31,677 nt of DNA from a virus (taxonomy: Duplodnaviria; Caudoviricetes), in the IMG/VR virus record IMGVR_UViG_3300032320_000694, positions 1-31,677 of that record; one strand, given 5' to 3'. The translations under genes were made by a program, and so were the position numbers. Under the pieces are notes generated by a model. The model did no database searches. It was not told where the DNA came from and saw only the letters and a program-made list of their open reading frames with translations. This document shows, piece by piece, positions 8,250 to 31,424 of the stretch (positions within the stretch are counted from its first letter, which is position 1; every line of letters begins with the position of its first letter).

Positions 8250-8315
8250 CAAGTAAGCTTATTAATCGGTATATCGTCTGCTGGGGCAGTTTAATAAGCT
8301 AATTTACCCAGATAT
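8250..8315 (-). ncRNA. Structured RNA element downstream of the capsid gene, probably the Mu-gpT-DE motif
   Basis: Perfect 10-bp stem AGCTTATTAA/TTAATAAGCT (8291-8300/8256-8265) enclosing hairpin CTGC-CCCA-GCAG; the loop can pair with 5' CTGGG (8307-8311) as a pseudoknot. Position matches the described Mu-gpT downstream element; the name is recalled, not searched. Confidence 0.6.
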
Positions 8316-11516: not shown

Positions 11517-11933
11517 TTAAGCTCTTGAAATTCCACGAGGATCTTGAACAACTCCCTCGACAGAATCATCGTTAATAATACGGAATTCTTTTCCGTGAAT
11601 TTTTAATCTTGTTCCAGTGTTTGGTCTGGCAAGAATAAAATCACCCACATTACACCATGGGCCAGTTGGGAAACGATCTTTGTCTGTATAACAGTCAGGA
11701 CCCATTTTTACAACAAAAAATACCGTTGAAAGTACTTCTTCCATGTGTAAAGTTGAATCTGCTTTTATAAGACCGCTGTTGCCGTATTCTTTTTCTGCAT
11801 CAGGAATGGCTACTAGCATATGATATCCACAAGGTTCTGGAAGCTGTTTGGCTTTTTCTTCTGGATCGGTTGGTAAGGTTGTTACATTTTTTACGTCATC
11901 GGGGTTTGATCCGATTAGTAGACTGTCAGTCAT
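11517..11933 (-). CDS. groES: GroES/Cpn10-like co-chaperonin
   Basis: P.G..MLV, SGLI mobile loop, VVKMGPD.Y, VGD.IL, G.E.RIINDD.V.GVV. Confidence 0.8.
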   Translation of the reverse strand: MTDSLLIGSNPDDVKNVTTLPTDPEEKAKQLPEPCGYHMLVAIPDAEKEYGNSGLIKADSTLHMEEVLSTVFFVVKMGPDCYTDKDRFPTGPWCNVGDFILARPNTGTRLKIHGKEFRIINDDSVEGVVQDPRGISRA

Positions 11934-12120
11934 CAAAATTCTCCAAGTTCTTTTTGAGGTCCATAATATACATCCGCACAGACAATAGACCTGTAATTTG
12001 CCCGCACATTTTTTGGTATTCAGCGTAGTCTTTGGCTACGCCTGTACCTAGAGATTCTTCCAAATCTCTTACTTTTACATCTACTTTTTGGAATAGATGG
12101 TCAAGAATTTTTTCTTTCAT
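11926..12120 (-). CDS. Small conserved head-module protein
   Basis: 64 aa, G.AKDYAEY...CG.I.GL; overlaps the portal stop. Confidence 0.7.
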   Translation of the reverse strand: MKEKILDHLFQKVDVKVRDLEESLGTGVAKDYAEYQKMCGQITGLLSVRMYIMDLKKNLENFDD

Positions 12121-14603: not shown

Positions 14604-16094
14604 TTAATAATAAGATTTCTTACGTTTAAATTCTATTGGCTCATCTTCTTCATCTGAAGGCAGCTGAATAAACCCGCCTCTTCTGAATCTTAAAAGTGCT
14701 TGCGTAGTCGAGTCTACCAAGTCGTCATGGTCTGAATTTGGAAATGCAGCTAATTCCTCTACTACTTCTTCAGCCCATCTTTTAGGTGGACACCACACTT
14801 TGCCAGAAGCAAATAAATCAGATACAGAATTTACACGAGCAATTTTATCATTACCTCGTGTTGGAGTAAACTCCTGTACCGGTATTCCCATTCTTCTTAA
14901 TTCAAATATTAATGGCGCTCCAGAAGCTTTTGCTTCTACAATAAAGGCATCTGGTTCATATTCTTTATACATATCATATGCACGTTGTTTTAATTCTGGA
15001 AACTCTAGCCGTTCTTTTAAAGCATCTAAAAGAATTATATTTGCGTCATTTTGATCTTCATTTAAATAAAATACCCCCCAAGTTGTACACGCAGAATAGT
15101 CAGATCTTTCGTTCTTTGTAAAAGCCGTATCCCAACTTTGTATAATAAACTCACACTTTGGCGGTCTTTCTTGTTCCCACATCTTCCACCATTCTCTTTT
15201 TACCAAAGCACCCTGTTCGCTGGTTGGGTCCTGTTGATACTGTGCCTGCCATTTAGATAATGGTAATTCAATTCTTAATTTGTTTAATTCTTCATAACTC
15301 CAGAACTCTGGCCATAAAGGTGTCTCATTACGCTTAATTGCCGGTAAACTAATAATCTCCCAGTCATCTCCGTCTCTGTCAATCATTGACTGACAAATCT
15401 TGCCTGTCAAGTCTCTCTTAGACCATCTAGTCATTACGATGACTATTGACCCTCCAGGCTGAAGACGCTGTCTCGGTCCAGAGGTATACCATTCATAGAC
15501 TTTATCAAATACGCTAGGATCTCCAGAAGCCAAAGCTGCTTCTTGTTCCGAGTGCGGATCGTCAATAATAAGCAAGTCAGCGCCCTTACCCGTTACTGTA
15601 CCGCCAACCCCAATCGCAAAGTATTCGCCGTTTTCATTAGTACTCCAACGCCCCGCTGCCTTAGAGTCTGACCTTAGAGCTACATTAGGAAATACCTTAG
15701 AGTAGGTTTCATTGCCTACTAAGTTCCTTACCTTACGACCAAAACCTACTGCAAGTTCTGCCGTATTAGAACACTGAATAATTTTCTTATTTGGAAACTT
15801 GCCTAAAAACCACGCCGGTAACAGATAACTAGCAAACTCCGACTTCGTATGTCTAGGAGGCATATTAATAATCAACCGCTTTGTCTTACCAGAGGCTATC
15901 TCTTCAAATTTTGTTGCCATGAGTGCATGATGTGCGCCATGAATAAAACCCGGCCACATGGTCTGCACAAATGTCATAAAGTCTATCTGCCCAGTTTCAC
16001 GTATCAAAGAATCTTGATAAGCCAGAGCCAAAGGCATTAATTGCTCTCTCTCCTGCTCCGGCAACATCTTTAATATATCTAATATATTATCCAT
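14604..16094 (-). CDS. terL: Terminase large subunit
   Basis: Walker A-like MPPRHTKS, Walker B LLIIDDP, VMTRW, YQQDP; nuclease motifs SWDTA and HDDLVDS. Confidence 0.95.
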   Translation of the reverse strand: MDNILDILKMLPEQEREQLMPLALAYQDSLIRETGQIDFMTFVQTMWPGFIHGAHHALMATKFEEIASGKTKRLIINMPPRHTKSEFASYLLPAWFLGKFPNKKIIQCSNTAELAVGFGRKVRNLVGNETYSKVFPNVALRSDSKAAGRWSTNENGEYFAIGVGGTVTGKGADLLIIDDPHSEQEAALASGDPSVFDKVYEWYTSGPRQRLQPGGSIVIVMTRWSKRDLTGKICQSMIDRDGDDWEIISLPAIKRNETPLWPEFWSYEELNKLRIELPLSKWQAQYQQDPTSEQGALVKREWWKMWEQERPPKCEFIIQSWDTAFTKNERSDYSACTTWGVFYLNEDQNDANIILLDALKERLEFPELKQRAYDMYKEYEPDAFIVEAKASGAPLIFELRRMGIPVQEFTPTRGNDKIARVNSVSDLFASGKVWCPPKRWAEEVVEELAAFPNSDHDDLVDSTTQALLRFRRGGFIQLPSDEEDEPIEFKRKKSYY

Positions 16095-16314
16095 TGATAT
16101 TTCTTATATTTAAGTAGGACGGTCTAATACTTCTAGTGTTCCTCGTATTACCTTTACAATACCCTTGTTTAATTAATGCCCGCATTTTACGAGCAACATT
16201 CCCGCGACCCTTCTCGCCAGTCATGTACATAATATCATCAATGGTAGGACCAAAGCCGTAACTCTCCCACCACTTCTCAATAATATGAAAAACCTCCTTC
16301 TGCGCAGGTGTCAT
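16087..16314 (-). CDS. LexA-type winged-helix DNA-binding protein (no peptidase domain)
   Basis: MTPAQKEV...I..W....GFGPTIDDI......G.V......L...GY.....R.IR resembles the LexA N-terminal domain; ATGA overlap fixes the start at 16314. Confidence 0.65.
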   Translation of the reverse strand: MTPAQKEVFHIIEKWWESYGFGPTIDDIMYMTGEKGRGNVARKMRALIKQGYCKGNTRNTRSIRPSYLNIRNING

Positions 16315-17544: not shown

Positions 17545-17599
17545 AATGTAAATATTTATTAAAAAAGTATTGACAGTCAAGTATATTCATCTTTAAACT
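17545..17599 (+). promoter_or_regulatory. Strong sigma-70 early promoter
   Basis: TTGACA (17570-17575)-18 bp-TAAACT (17594-17599) with an AT-rich UP element; the -35 lies within palindrome TTGAC-A-GTCAA. Confidence 0.7.
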
Positions 17600-17650
17600 C
17601 TAGTTATGCAATACATGAAACCTCTCTCAACCCATCTACTAGGAGTTCTA

Positions 17651-17830
17651 ATGGAAATTACAGTAAAAATCAAACCAGTCTATGGAGTAGATAACATCTA
17701 TCCTGTATGTCCTCAAGCCCATCTATTTGCTCGTCTTGCCAATACCAAGACTCTTACAAGAGATTCAATCAAGACCATTAAAGACTTGGGCTACACAATC
17801 AAAATTGAACAACAATCTATCTCAATCTAA
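17651..17830 (+). CDS. First early gene, hypothetical (VYG...IYP family)
   Basis: 59 aa from ATG 17651 with CTAGGAG RBS. Confidence 0.75.
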   Translation: MEITVKIKPVYGVDNIYPVCPQAHLFARLANTKTLTRDSIKTIKDLGYTIKIEQQSISI

Positions 17831-17839
17831 GGAGCATCT

Positions 17840-18019
17840 ATGAAAATCACAATCTATATCAAAACCGACAGTCAAGCACACCAAGACAGTCCTGCGTTTG
17901 AGTTACAAAGAAACATGACGCAAGTTACTCAGGCTCTGCTTTGCTACTCACCACCACATGAAGGGCATTTCAATGATTCCAATGGTAATGCTGTTGGTCT
18001 TTTCTTCATTGAGGAGTGA
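17840..18019 (+). CDS. Hypothetical protein, not in ORF track (MKITIYIKTD...DSNGNAVG...)
   Basis: 59 aa translated by hand; AAGGAG RBS; fills the gap between neighbours. Confidence 0.75.
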   Translation: MKITIYIKTDSQAHQDSPAFELQRNMTQVTQALLCYSPPHEGHFNDSNGNAVGLFFIEE

Positions 18020-18095
18020 TACCTATAAGCCCATGCACTGCGTGGGTTTATGGATTATCACTTGATAGTCAATAACTTCTGCTAGGAGATTTTAA
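18015..18095 (+). promoter_or_regulatory. Structured intergenic leader, copy 1
   Basis: 14-bp hairpin 18023-18053 (3 G-U pairs), second hairpin GATTATC/GATAGTC, then TAACTTCTGCTAGGAGATT RBS. Confidence 0.65.
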
Positions 18096-18455
18096 ATGCA
18101 AACAATAGATTTATCAGGCTTTATTGGCACATCTGCCTACCATAGGAGCAGTCTTTTTTCCAAAATGGTTCACACGGATGGTGTTGAATCATTCTGTAAT
18201 CAGGCTCATGCCTACTGGTTCTTAGATATCTGTTCTACCGAGATTCATCCACTACTCGATAAGGAGTTTTTTCTCAGCATTGAGTTGGATGTATTTAATC
18301 ATCAAGAATTTGGCAGTCGTCATGCAATTATCATGGTTACAGATGGGGATGAGAATCATATGCTCACAAAGTTTATCGAGTTTACTGACTGCCCCGTTGG
18401 GAAATACACATTCTTCATGACCGACAATGTTCTCATGCTTACTCAGGAGTATTGA
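18096..18455 (+). CDS. DUF6876-like protein
   Basis: GT..YHR, TDGV, AYW.LD, DG....L....IEFTD.P and VLML..EY motifs. Confidence 0.7.
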   Translation: MQTIDLSGFIGTSAYHRSSLFSKMVHTDGVESFCNQAHAYWFLDICSTEIHPLLDKEFFLSIELDVFNHQEFGSRHAIIMVTDGDENHMLTKFIEFTDCPVGKYTFFMTDNVLMLTQEY

Positions 18456-21285: not shown

Positions 21286-21474
21286 ATGAAACTAGAAATG
21301 AAAATGTATTTTGCTGACATGGACTCACTGAAGTCTGCCTTGAAAGATTTAATCAATGAGTTAGACAGGTGTGACATGGGAACAGTCGAGAGTTATCCGT
21401 TTTACATTGGATCATTCAGACGAATCAATGAAAAGATTGATGTGACAGACTTGGATAGTGGTGTGCATTGGTAA
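21286..21474 (+). CDS. Hypothetical protein
   Basis: 62 aa; GAGG RBS. Confidence 0.65.
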   Translation: MKLEMKMYFADMDSLKSALKDLINELDRCDMGTVESYPFYIGSFRRINEKIDVTDLDSGVHW

Positions 21475-21549
21475 GTGTCAATCCTTATGCTCGAAAGGGC
21501 ATAGGGATTATCATTTCGGTAATCATTTAACTTTTGCTAGGAGATTAAA
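21473..21549 (+). promoter_or_regulatory. Structured intergenic leader, copy 2
   Basis: 13-bp hairpin 21480-21509 with a GAAA tetraloop, second hairpin GATTATC/GGTAATC, then TAACTTTTGCTAGGAGATT RBS. Confidence 0.65.
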
Positions 21550-22236: not shown

Positions 22237-22529
22237 TGGGTGCGACTAATTTTATGTGTAGTGAAAGTGGTAAATCTGCGAAAGAAGCGTTTAGAAGTGC
22301 AGTGAAACAAGCCCAGTATGATCATGGGCATAGTGGTTATACAGGCACAATCGCTGAGAAAAGTGAGTTTGTGATGATTCCCTTGCCGAAAGGTATGAAT
22401 CCAGTGACTTATGCCAACAAACTTTTTGACGATAACGATTCTCGGATTGATGACAAATGGGGTGCGTGTGGTTGTATTGCTATTCCTGAGTCAGACGAAT
22501 ATCTGTTCTTTGGTTACGCATCTTGCTAG
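22236..22529 (+). CDS. Conserved phage protein (GH.GYTGTIAEK...DKWG...FFG.A)
   Basis: 97 aa; TAATG coupling at 22234-22238. Confidence 0.75.
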   Translation: MGATNFMCSESGKSAKEAFRSAVKQAQYDHGHSGYTGTIAEKSEFVMIPLPKGMNPVTYANKLFDDNDSRIDDKWGACGCIAIPESDEYLFFGYASC

Positions 22530-22537
22530 GAGAAAAT

Positions 22538-23341: not shown

Positions 23342-23505
23342 AGCGATATGATGTTACATTCGTGATGCAAAGAAAGGTCTATATTACTGTAGATGTTCCC
23401 AATGGTGAGGATATTGTTCAGTGGGCGTGGGATAATATTACAGTCAATAATGGCGAAGACATGATTGATGTAGACTACTATGAGGTTGATCCTAATGAAT
23501 ATTAA
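23338..23505 (+). CDS. Small acidic beta protein, not in ORF track (MKRYDVTFVM...)
   Basis: 55 aa; GAGGAGG RBS; ATGA overlap. Confidence 0.65.
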   Translation: MKRYDVTFVMQRKVYITVDVPNGEDIVQWAWDNITVNNGEDMIDVDYYEVDPNEY

Positions 23506-23776
23506 GAACTGTGGTGGTAAAGTTCCAGTATTTGTGGGGGGCGAAAGCCCCTACAAACTGGTTGATTTTCCTTCAAAAGAGGTGTTTAATGAATGTTTTA
23601 AACGAAGCAAACCTGAAGACCAAGATAAATACTGGACAATGCTTCATATGCGTCTTGAAGGCAATTCTTTGAGTCAGGTTGCTTCTAAATACAGTTTGAC
23701 AAGAGAAAGGATTCGTCAGATTGAGGCTAAGTTTTTAAGGAGATTAGCCATTTCTTTAAACTCTGCGAAGCCTTGA
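23495..23776 (+). CDS. Stand-alone sigma-70 region-4 HTH protein
   Basis: SLSQVASKYSLTRERIRQIEAKFLRRL closely matches RpoD region 4.2 (TRERIRQIEAKALRKL). Confidence 0.8.
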   Translation: MNIKNCGGKVPVFVGGESPYKLVDFPSKEVFNECFKRSKPEDQDKYWTMLHMRLEGNSLSQVASKYSLTRERIRQIEAKFLRRLAISLNSAKP

Positions 23777-26297: not shown

Positions 26298-26323
26298 GTA
26301 TTCTCCTAGCAGTTGGAAATTTT

Positions 26324-26354: not shown

Positions 26355-26857
26355 GTATTCCTGAGGGAGCGCAACGAAATTGAAAGTGAGGTTTCCCCCA
26401 ACCCCACAGAGCAGGGCTGAAGAAAAACTCATCTTGATATTCCCTCAGTCGCTTACTTCATATCAAGTTAATGAACCATTGGTAGTCTAGTTCACATACC
26501 AGTGCTTTCTACTCATTACTACGAGTTCGTTTAAGTGTCACTGGATGATCCCTATTTCTCCCAATCGTTCTCAGACAGGGTAAAGATCACGTTTCCACAC
26601 CTTGAGCTTAAACAGTCTTCTTTGCTCACTATCACGCCAATTTAGGAAGAACGTACCGTATGTCTTTTTGCCGTTCTACTTAACTTCAAGGGCAACTTTC
26701 TCACATACTCAGACCGATAGACCTAAACCATCGTTCTAGGTAATAAGCATCACAAATCGCATAAATTTATACACGTTAAATTAATATGTATAAAAAATAC
26801 TTAATTTGTTGCATGAAATTGTTTCAGTTCATGTAGAAGCTTATGACCTAGCAGAAC
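26355..26857 (-). ncRNA. Candidate large (~500 nt) structured non-coding RNA
   Basis: No ORF of 60 aa or more; own promoter; about ten nested helices, many G-U pairs valid only on the minus strand; 8-bp pseudoknot near the 3' end. Confidence 0.7.
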
Positions 26858-26860
26858 TAT

Positions 26861-26889
26861 AGATTACACCAAGTAAATTTATTTTGCAA
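26861..26889 (-). promoter_or_regulatory. Sigma-70 promoter of the large ncRNA
   Basis: TTGCAA-17 bp-TAATCT, immediately after the sRNA terminator. Confidence 0.6.
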
Positions 26890-26890
26890 G

Positions 26891-26927
26891 AAAAAAAAGA
26901 ACCCTAGAGTGTGAAATCTAGGGTTCT
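26891..26927 (-). terminator. Rho-independent terminator of the small RNA
   Basis: Perfect 11-bp stem AGAACCCTAGA/TCTAGGGTTCT, 8-nt loop, U8 run on the minus strand. Confidence 0.85.
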
Positions 26928-27024
26928 GGGGGGGTGGGATCAAGGTGGATCCTACTGTCTATGAAGAATAACCCTGCTAGGAGCGTCTACACGTTGTGAT
27001 GACAGTAGTAGATGGGGTCTACAT
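26891..27024 (-). ncRNA. Candidate trans-acting anti-RBS small RNA (~135 nt)
   Basis: Promoter plus intrinsic terminator with no ORF (ATG followed at once by TAG); stems GTAGA/TCTAC, CTACTGTC/GACAGTAG and GGATC/GATCC; central loop complementary to several phage RBSs. Confidence 0.7.
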
Positions 27025-27029
27025 GAATA

Positions 27030-27059
27030 AATATACCACATATATTATAGATCAGTCAA
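27030..27059 (-). promoter_or_regulatory. Sigma-70 promoter of the small RNA
   Basis: TTGACT-18 bp-TATATT with TGn extended -10. Confidence 0.65.
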
Positions 27060-30367: not shown

Positions 30368-30652
30368 TTAATCCTTAACCGCTTTATCGCTCAATATATT
30401 ACCGCTCGCACACTTTAACACCGCTCTGCCTCTTTGGATTAATTTTTCTTTTGCTTGTGGCGATGTTGCAATATATATCATAAAATCTTCATCGTTTAAA
30501 CATAATGCATCAACTATTTCCTCATCGGTTAATTCACGCACAACAACTGCCTTGCCCTCACACAAATCATATATTGCCTTGTTTAAAGGGTCTGGCAACT
30601 TCTCACCGTCAAGTAAATCAGATAGCATTTGCCACATTCCTTGAGTAATCAT
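30368..30652 (-). CDS. Hypothetical protein with a RELTDEEI module
   Basis: 94 aa; ATGA overlap inside the junction repeat. Confidence 0.65.
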   Translation of the reverse strand: MITQGMWQMLSDLLDGEKLPDPLNKAIYDLCEGKAVVVRELTDEEIVDALCLNDEDFMIYIATSPQAKEKLIQRGRAVLKCASGNILSDKAVKD

Positions 30653-31227
30653 TTCTCACTCGCTTTCTTTAGTATTGCTCTTGAAAAATCTTTGTATCTA
30701 AATGTATGCCCATCTTCAGGTTCATCAATACATTTAATCATTTCTGCGTATATTTCTTCATCCGTTAGTTCACGCAAACCATCATATCTACCAATCAAAT
30801 AAGACCTTGTATCCAAAGTTTCAATTTCTTGCCCAATGTCAGATAACTTTTGTAGTGCTAGTTCTTTTTTTAATGTTTCCATCTGTTCTTTAGTCATTCG
30901 ATTTACATACTCATCACCTTCACGAATCCATCGTTGAATTAAATTAGGGTTAAAATGCACTTCTTCATATGCCTTCCAAACTCCCTCACCACTTGCGTCT
31001 GTAGTTAACTCCCATCCATCAGGATTTGGCACACCTACGGCATTGTTATAAATCATCACCGCACTTTTTATTTCCTGTTTAAACATAAAGTCTAGTTGTA
31101 ATTCTTTTTTCTTTAGTTCTTTACGCAGTTCATCAATCTCTTCTTGCATGACTTCTTGAATCTTTGCATTGGTAACAATCTCGCCAGCATCAAACTTTTC
31201 GCATCGTTCATTCCATGTTAGTATCAT
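30649..31227 (-). CDS. Mosaic hypothetical protein (RELTDEEI ... RAILKKASEK)
   Basis: 192 aa; bounded by two junction repeats. Confidence 0.7.
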   Translation of the reverse strand: MILTWNERCEKFDAGEIVTNAKIQEVMQEEIDELRKELKKKELQLDFMFKQEIKSAVMIYNNAVGVPNPDGWELTTDASGEGVWKAYEEVHFNPNLIQRWIREGDEYVNRMTKEQMETLKKELALQKLSDIGQEIETLDTRSYLIGRYDGLRELTDEEIYAEMIKCIDEPEDGHTFRYKDFSRAILKKASEK

Positions 31228-31424
31228 TTCTCACTCGCTTTCTTACTTATTAATGGCACTCCGCCATTATCATCGCCTTTAAATGCACCGTAAAACATTT
31301 GCGAACTAAAAGCATTTAATATCCTACGTTTAGCTTCTTCTCTTTCTTCTTCAGGAAAATCTGCCACAGACTCTTCTAAACATTTCATAAATTCATTAGC
31401 CACTTCTTTTGCTGGGATTATCAT
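31224..31424 (-). CDS. Hypothetical protein ending KKASEK
   Basis: 66 aa between repeats. Confidence 0.65.
   Translation of the reverse strand: MIIPAKEVANEFMKCLEESVADFPEEEREEAKRRILNAFSSQMFYGAFKGDDNGGVPLISKKASEK

Follow-up and report, generated by a model that had tools for sequence, protein, structure and literature searches.

Whether a tailed phage can hold back its own early and replication genes with one small RNA is the question raised by a short non-coding unit upstream of a phage helicase gene. The unit lies in a 31,677-nucleotide (nt) stretch of DNA (hereafter referred to as the window) from an uncultured tailed phage; near-complete relatives are roughly twice as long (61–66 kb). The left part of the window carries the terminase, portal, GroES and capsid genes on the minus strand. 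An early run of about 24 small open reading frames (ORFs) occupies 17.6–23.8 kb on the plus strand, with an early promoter (17570–17599, plus strand) upstream of its first gene (ATG 17651), and the primase and helicase genes lie at 23.7–26.0 kb on the minus strand. The phage-encoded GroES gene (11517–11936, minus strand) is located between the portal and capsid genes, and three consecutive genes at 30368–31424 (minus strand) have AAGAAAGCGAGTGAGAA upstream of the start codon. The capsid protein is 62–70% identical to those of Pag-Yong1, HTVC023P, HTVC027P and DSL-LC04; Pag-Yong1 is the cultured phage with the nearest capsid (70%), and the 40 kb of it that were checked contain neither a match to our model of the small RNA (sRNA) nor the ribosome-binding site (RBS) tag described below. 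Three genome matches are metagenome-assembled genome (MAG) contigs from three unrelated taxa and are probably mis-binned phage DNA. A first-pass annotation had seen no CI-type repressor or integrase in the window; to that picture we add a protein consisting only of a LexA DNA-binding domain (PF01726, no peptidase match; 16087–16314, minus strand, between the terminase genes) and a sigma70-region-4 helix-turn-helix (HTH) protein where the early run ends (23480–23776, plus strand), which is a possible transcription regulator.

The unit lies on the minus strand between a predicted sigma70 promoter with an extended −10 element (P1, TTGACT-18-TATATT, 27059–27030) and an intrinsic terminator with an 11-bp hairpin followed by a U run (26927–26898), both of which we found as first described. 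These promoter-like and terminator-like ends of its own suggest a primary transcript, and we infer an sRNA of about 132 nt (predicted ends, 26891–27024) that folds in the window into four hairpins: SL1, SL2, SL3 and the terminator. SL2 contains the stem CTACTGTC/GACAGTAG (27001–27008/26952–26959), also as first annotated, a hypervariable arm (26984–26999) predicted to pair with a second transcript of the same phage, and, 3′ of the arm, the seed CUCCUAGCAG (26974–26983) with its invariant core CCUAGCAG and an exposed hexaloop, CUAGCA, that opens with a YUNR motif. The earlier description of this loop as open holds for the hexaloop, which is mostly unpaired (mean 0.71–0.91 over 21 units), and less well for the anti-Shine–Dalgarno (anti-SD) bases, which are partly paired (0.32–0.59). 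The 132-nt unit has a fold z-score of −4.5, and none of 200 shuffled sequences folds as well; the terminator supplies most of this value, as the body without it is unexceptional (z −1.3). The unit thus has features of trans-acting sRNAs, namely its own predicted promoter, an intrinsic terminator and no conserved ORF, together with a short, conserved, accessible seed and several predicted targets at the computational level. Similar −35 and −10 elements precede the units of most relatives, and no opposite-strand ORF over the unit is conserved among 21 units. An Rfam search of the window gave no credible match, the one match at E 0.39 falling on a late terminator; the check for known immunity RNAs suggested with the first-pass annotation returned no C4 match at E values up to 1 and no CI match. 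Of two DNA sequencing runs, X1 may be the source of the window, and the reads of X2 do not cover the sRNA; record 12 of X2, a contig of a related strain, differs from the window at five places, four of them in the variable target arm (window 26834–26839), at a depth of 4.3 at which they may be errors.

We collected 80 loci by helicase similarity (60–75% identity; the best 80 of 194). Upstream of the helicase gene, an antisense CCTAGC followed by a terminator occurs in 28 of these 80 loci, including duplicates, which leaves 20 distinct units besides that of the window. The core CCUAGCAG is invariant in 22 aligned sequences, although six of its eight bases had been used to find the units, which leaves the final two as the unbiased part of this result. 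SL1, SL2 with the enclosed seed, SL3 and the terminator are present in 18 of the 21 distinct units, with different stem sequences. Because the stem lengths differ, the MAFFT/RNAalifold consensus recovered only the terminator; our model R1 therefore captures chiefly primary sequence, and we compared the helices separately for each unit. When the alignment model was applied to the window and to 77 of the 80 loci (again the best 80 of 194), nine more units emerged at E < 1e-6 and a tenth at 0.0013. The seed and SL3 pattern alone yielded a second locus set of 87, 59 of them distinct. The exact 19-base seed pattern had no match in viral_contigs, and the sRNA region none among 50,697 phage records. 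A weak model match in a Manatee Spring record lies inside a gene and was discarded, as were L045, L051 and L054, in which the antisense copy resembles an RBS serving a gene on the opposite strand. We also searched de novo for other seed–tag pairs in the loci that lack the RNA; nothing firm came of it.

Two further observations concern the distribution of such units. A family member at 8269–8365 of L083, a contig binned with a Microbacteriaceae MAG, is accompanied by a tag at the helicase start and has no sense copy behind its terminator. At the same place, L043 (6600–6708) and L055 (950–1057) carry a different multi-hairpin unit with CCUCCGU stretches; the RBSs of these phages include AACGGAGG, and their unit is possibly an analogous RNA. 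Taken as a whole, the sequence comparison strongly supports a real, conserved family of phage sRNAs. The family is apparently undescribed: we found no description in a literature search, in which subscription journals were thinly covered, and none in the covered part of a review of phage sRNAs (PMC12197685).

The best-supported partner of the sRNA had been missed by the first-pass annotation, whose target list was to that extent incomplete. Directly behind the sRNA terminator lies a predicted second promoter (P2, TTGCAA-17-TAATCT, 26861–26889, minus strand), which is below the cut-off of the promoter scanner and conserved in position; a P2-like pattern is found in 29 of 32 units. The 5′ end of the P2 transcript (26830–26854, minus strand) is bipartite, consisting of the complement of the seed, a bulge and then the complement of the arm. 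Among 25 non-redundant units, the leader of the same phage is the one favoured by the sRNAs (double-centred energy −9.7; permutation s.d. 0.88, relatedness being ignored in the permutation), and the own partner is the best match for 16 of the 25 sRNAs and 20 of the 25 leaders. In the second locus set, a downstream sense copy is present in 27 of 27 units with a terminator, compared with 2 of 29 other matches; three were short of flank. The variable arms alone favour the own partner (−4.9, s.d. 0.54) across 19 non-redundant pairs of this set, from which five known repeats of the first set had been left out beforehand and among which two further repeats, L173 and L177, were kept.

Individual pairs illustrate how the arms change. 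L031 and L035 share 0.97 of their helicase DNA and 0.87–0.91 of the flanks, but just 0.18 and 0.50 of the two arms, whereas both arms are identical between L028 and L034, whose helicase identity is 0.77. In L115, the arm fits its own leader less well than the arm of L110 does. A test of G–U pairs by strand was not significant in either set (14/25, p = 0.34; 14/19, p = 0.12). The co-variation strongly supports the prediction that the sRNA of each phage pairs with the 5′ end of its own P2 transcript, arm by arm.

Further along the P2 transcript, a fold-back strand (26734–26748, minus strand; fold z −3.5) is predicted to hide the P2 target once it has been transcribed. The fold-back prefers its own sequence (−3.7, s.d. 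0.55) and is the best match in only 6 of 25 cases. The non-coding body (26380–26733, minus strand) ends in a terminator-like hairpin (26407–26386) and differs between relatives; that of the window is matched solely by L001 and L002 among the best 80 of 194 loci. In three relatives, the P2 transcript contains a match to the Rfam family Betaproteobacteria-1 (RF02932; L023 8826–8944, L028 8867–8983 and L068 7968–8084), to which the window body is unrelated. A predicted promoter P3 (26324–26351, minus strand) precedes the run formed by an 88-amino acid (aa) gene, the helicase and the primase.

The complement of the loop marks the starts of several genes. As first reported, TGCTAGGAG occurs five times in the window (mean 0.15 and maximum 1 in 100 shuffles): four copies are the RBSs of the genes at 18096 (a DUF6876 gene; tag at 18080–18088, plus strand), 21550 (21535–21543, plus strand), 22538 (22524–22532, plus strand) and 26297 (26303–26311, minus strand; the 88-aa gene ahead of the helicase and primase), and the fifth is antisense, in the loop of the unit. 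The shared TGCT extension is the commonest 4-mer before AGGAG (5 of 53), the site at 18096 can form 17 pairs with one bulge, and the late region contains no exact copy. Of the six target genes originally proposed, four thus have solid tags, and a single-mismatch variant (17637–17645, plus strand) precedes ATG 17651, the gene that follows the early promoter and opens the early run. The sixth, at 17840, is doubtful: its 12-of-13 match of arm and SD (17830–17842, plus strand) is present and ranks seventh of 69, but an energy as good is attained by 240 of 1,000 shuffled arms at one or another start of the early or replication genes, which places the site within chance.

When 69 sites in the window were scored with accessibility costs, by an approximation rather than IntaRNA and with the helicase start taken as 25987 (26029 is correct), the top eight were early starts, the head of the replication operon or P2. 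The 18096 site scores highest (−14.5, compared with −6.8 for the best late site); over all sites, early and late scores differ at p = 0.08. Of the loci with a CCUAGCAG unit, 26 of 28 have at least two tags, compared with 2 of 29 of those without (57 of the 80 loci had enough flank, from the best 80 of 194), counts that contain near-duplicates and kin. The tags are found on many unrelated genes. The predicted pairing with the tags involves the invariant core of the sRNA. Of the co-variation between sRNA and RBS, proposed as a check by the first-pass annotation, the tag flanks show none: they have no preference for the phage's own sRNA (16 units, p = 0.15). By eye, just 13 of 27 units retain the anti-SD dinucleotide that lies 5′ of the core; in many duplexes, part of the SD would therefore stay uncovered.

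A promoter-like, hammerhead-like or long-hairpin element precedes 48 of 74 tags, compared with 24 of 258 untagged starts, by patterns written after the tags had been inspected. In the window, long hairpins lie ahead of the tags at 18096 (18014–18063, plus strand; z −3.9) and 21550 (21473–21516, plus strand; z −4.6) and may be processing sites; the window has no hammerhead-like motif. A long hairpin ending in GGATTRYCA, possibly an RNase III site or a new RNA motif, precedes 25 of the 74 tags and none of the 258 untagged starts. Twelve hammerhead-like elements listed in relatives have a tag immediately after their end; such elements occur before tags in the early regions of L003, L007, L023, L024, L026, L028, L029, L031, L064 and L074, and those of L023 and L028 are not reported by Rfam at the gathering score. 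In addition, L086, L089 and L090 carry a conserved gene of 72–75 aa that lies away from the early run and directly follows a promoter-like site and a tag, as a further tagged operon head.

A second clade provides a natural exchange of the seed. The units found by the model share the layout but carry other loops, mostly CUCUCUC, and form one branch of a quick helicase tree. In this clade, the seed and the P2 leader have changed together, and the YUNR motif is absent, whereas the first-clade hexaloop opens with CUAG. The old tag is found at none of 111 early starts in the second clade, compared with 78 of 450 elsewhere, and GAGAGR sites at 14 of 111 compared with 7 of 450; neither start count was de-duplicated. 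Three or more new tags occur in only four of eight second-clade loci, and on the quick tree the switch of tag at the level of the clade is a single event. Because of the co-occurrence of tags and units, the ranking of sites and this one clade-level seed switch, we regard action of the sRNA on tagged RBSs as moderately supported by sequence, and a multi-gene RBS regulon as probable.

We therefore favour, with a probability of roughly 0.6, the reading that this conserved phage gene encodes an antisense RNA that acts in trans to hold down the early and replication genes, by way of the RBS tags and the head of the P2 transcript. An RNA off-switch is likely because the loop mirrors the tags of several early genes and has co-varied with the 5′ end of the predicted transcript next to it. 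The sRNA would be made from P1 and end at its own terminator. Its CUAGCA hexaloop would pair with UGCUAG, immediately 5′ of the SD, and thereby distinguish tagged sites from ordinary SD sequences. On tagged mRNAs, the duplex would then spread over AGGAG, and 30S subunits would be kept from the cistron that comes first after a promoter or processing site. Where the P2 transcript is still nascent, the duplex would spread through the strain-specific arm before the fold-back strand exists and so prevent the fold-back; since the arm that pairs with P2 is strain-specific, the RNA of each phage would gate mainly its own P2 RNA. We infer repression as the direction on the tagged genes; the effect on P2 may run in either direction, the P2 RNA may be a leader or a stand-alone RNA, and the biological role is probably early-gene shut-off together with kin-specific exclusion or immunity.

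The same observations can be arranged differently. The sRNA might regulate only the neighbouring P2 RNA, as a switch of termination, folding or replication, with the RBS complementarity as a by-product: if the tag were the standard strong leader of the phage, shared by the P2 5′ end, its match to the loop would be incidental. The confinement of unit-by-unit co-variation to the P2 pairing, the tag flanks that do not co-vary and the variable anti-SD bases of the seed speak for such an arrangement. It is nonetheless unlikely, as the core is kept in L032, L066 and L083, which have tags but no downstream sense copy; as leaders starting with GGGCTAGG (L007, L009, L022, L024 and L068) cannot pair with the A of the hexaloop, yet this A is kept; and as the type of tag follows the seed in the second clade. 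Alternatively, the sRNA might repress the tagged RBSs while the P2 RNA serves as its sponge or antagonist, the P1:P2 ratio setting the switch; in a variant, it would control a replication primer, as in antisense-controlled plasmids. The P2 RNA of the window does end in a terminator-like hairpin, with P3 as a separate promoter for the replication genes, and the P2 duplex is long, strain-specific and favourable even against the folded leader (−8.5 kcal/mol). The fold-back, however, hides the site by raising its opening cost from 4.9 to 10.2 kcal/mol, so a co-transcriptional switch suits the data better than a standing sponge, and we consider this second arrangement quite improbable.

A purely DNA-level role is more improbable still. 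TGCTAGGAG could serve as a DNA operator or be bound by a protein, such as the LexA-type or the sigma70-region-4 protein, given that such HTH proteins are encoded in the window and that several copies lie just behind promoters. Against this, the copies are in the sense orientation at the SD position before start codons, the lone antisense copy is in the hairpin loop of a promoter–terminator unit, the bulged, co-varying arms indicate base pairing, and 18 of 21 units, including that of the window, have no CTG-N10-CAG LexA-type box nearby. It is hardly credible that the copy at 26975–26983 is simply the RBS of a small plus-strand gene: an open frame of 26–27 codons does follow in the window from 26996/26999, but the spacing is 12–15 nt, the start position and length (1–130 codons) are unconserved over 21 units, and three units lack a start codon.

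Tyrosine integrase, resolvase, recombinase, ParA and S24-peptidase repressor genes are each absent from all five near-complete relatives, three of which have a weak HTH_3 match below the cut-off. Lysogeny is thus not to be assumed, and early shut-off with kin exclusion during a lytic cycle fits equally well; the first-pass proposals of a 'master repressor', immunity and a carrier state describe what the RNA may do. A more far-reaching version, which we hold only tentatively, is that a widespread family of integrase-free phages relies on RNA for its whole decision circuit, with the sRNA in place of CI and the arm setting immunity groups through the partner RNA, allowing a carrier state or kin exclusion without a protein repressor. 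In such a circuit, the first RBS of every early unit would carry the tag, and promoters, hammerhead ribozymes and long hairpins would expose tags at fresh 5′ ends.

The C4 RNA of phages P1 and P7 is processed from a precursor by RNase P. C4 is a trans-acting antisense RNA on the phage's own genes, and small sequence differences in immI separate immunity types, according to the accessible parts of two papers (PMC8201110, PMC6906374). The latter differences resemble the hypervariable arm of the window sRNA. What C4 regulates is icd/ant, an antirepressor that counters a protein repressor, within an immI operon containing icd and ant, whereas the window sRNA would act on many unrelated early genes sharing one RBS tag, and its neighbours are a nuclease gene, a non-coding region, the 88-aa gene, the helicase and the primase. 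No antirepressor family is present among the 71 ORFs of the window, and seven related loci have no match to C4 (RF01695), nor to CI, at the gathering score. The CI RNA of P4 is a small phage RNA that pairs with nearby downstream sequence ahead of replication genes; it is processed from the leader that it controls and pairs with upstream and downstream sites, causing termination (accessible part of PMC4825925). The window has a similar, seqC-like complement downstream, before the replication genes (26830–26854, co-varying). The window sRNA has its own predicted promoter and terminator, with the strong terminator and a second promoter-like site separating it from its P2 partner, and it has several distant predicted RBS targets. 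By analogy, then, the sRNA would work like P4 CI or P1/P7 C4 but belongs to neither.

In plasmid incompatibility groups, partners show specific sequence drift, which the sRNA–P2 pairs resemble. Plasmid kissing-loop antisense RNAs carry a YUNR motif in the recognition loop (accessible part of PMC4485353), as does the start of the window hexaloop. These plasmid RNAs lie opposite their target, so complementarity is automatic; the sRNA and P2, in contrast, are in tandem on the minus strand about 130 nt apart, so they must co-evolve. P22 sar and lambda OOP/aQ block or destabilize phage regulatory mRNA, sar by hindering translation initiation, and have one target gene each in the covered part of the review (PMC12197685), whereas the window RNA has a short seed and several predicted trans targets. 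PreS and VpdS (Hfq-type) are phage-encoded trans-acting sRNAs described mainly as working on host mRNAs or Hfq; the covered part of that review (PMC12197685) mentions no tag built into the RBSs of the phage itself, such as the window sRNA is predicted to read.

The seed–tag claim is testable in Escherichia coli without the phage's own host, and the natural matched pairs of sRNA and partner provide orthogonal regulators ready for use. C4, CI and sar, the phage immunity RNAs already known, control one locus each, as far as the accessible parts of the cited papers describe them. If our reading is true, the RNA described here would be a repressor on the scale of a regulon, combining a shared tag at many of the phage's own RBSs with a separate variable arm that discriminates kin, and it would offer an answer to how phages without an integrase or a cleavable CI restrain their lytic genes.
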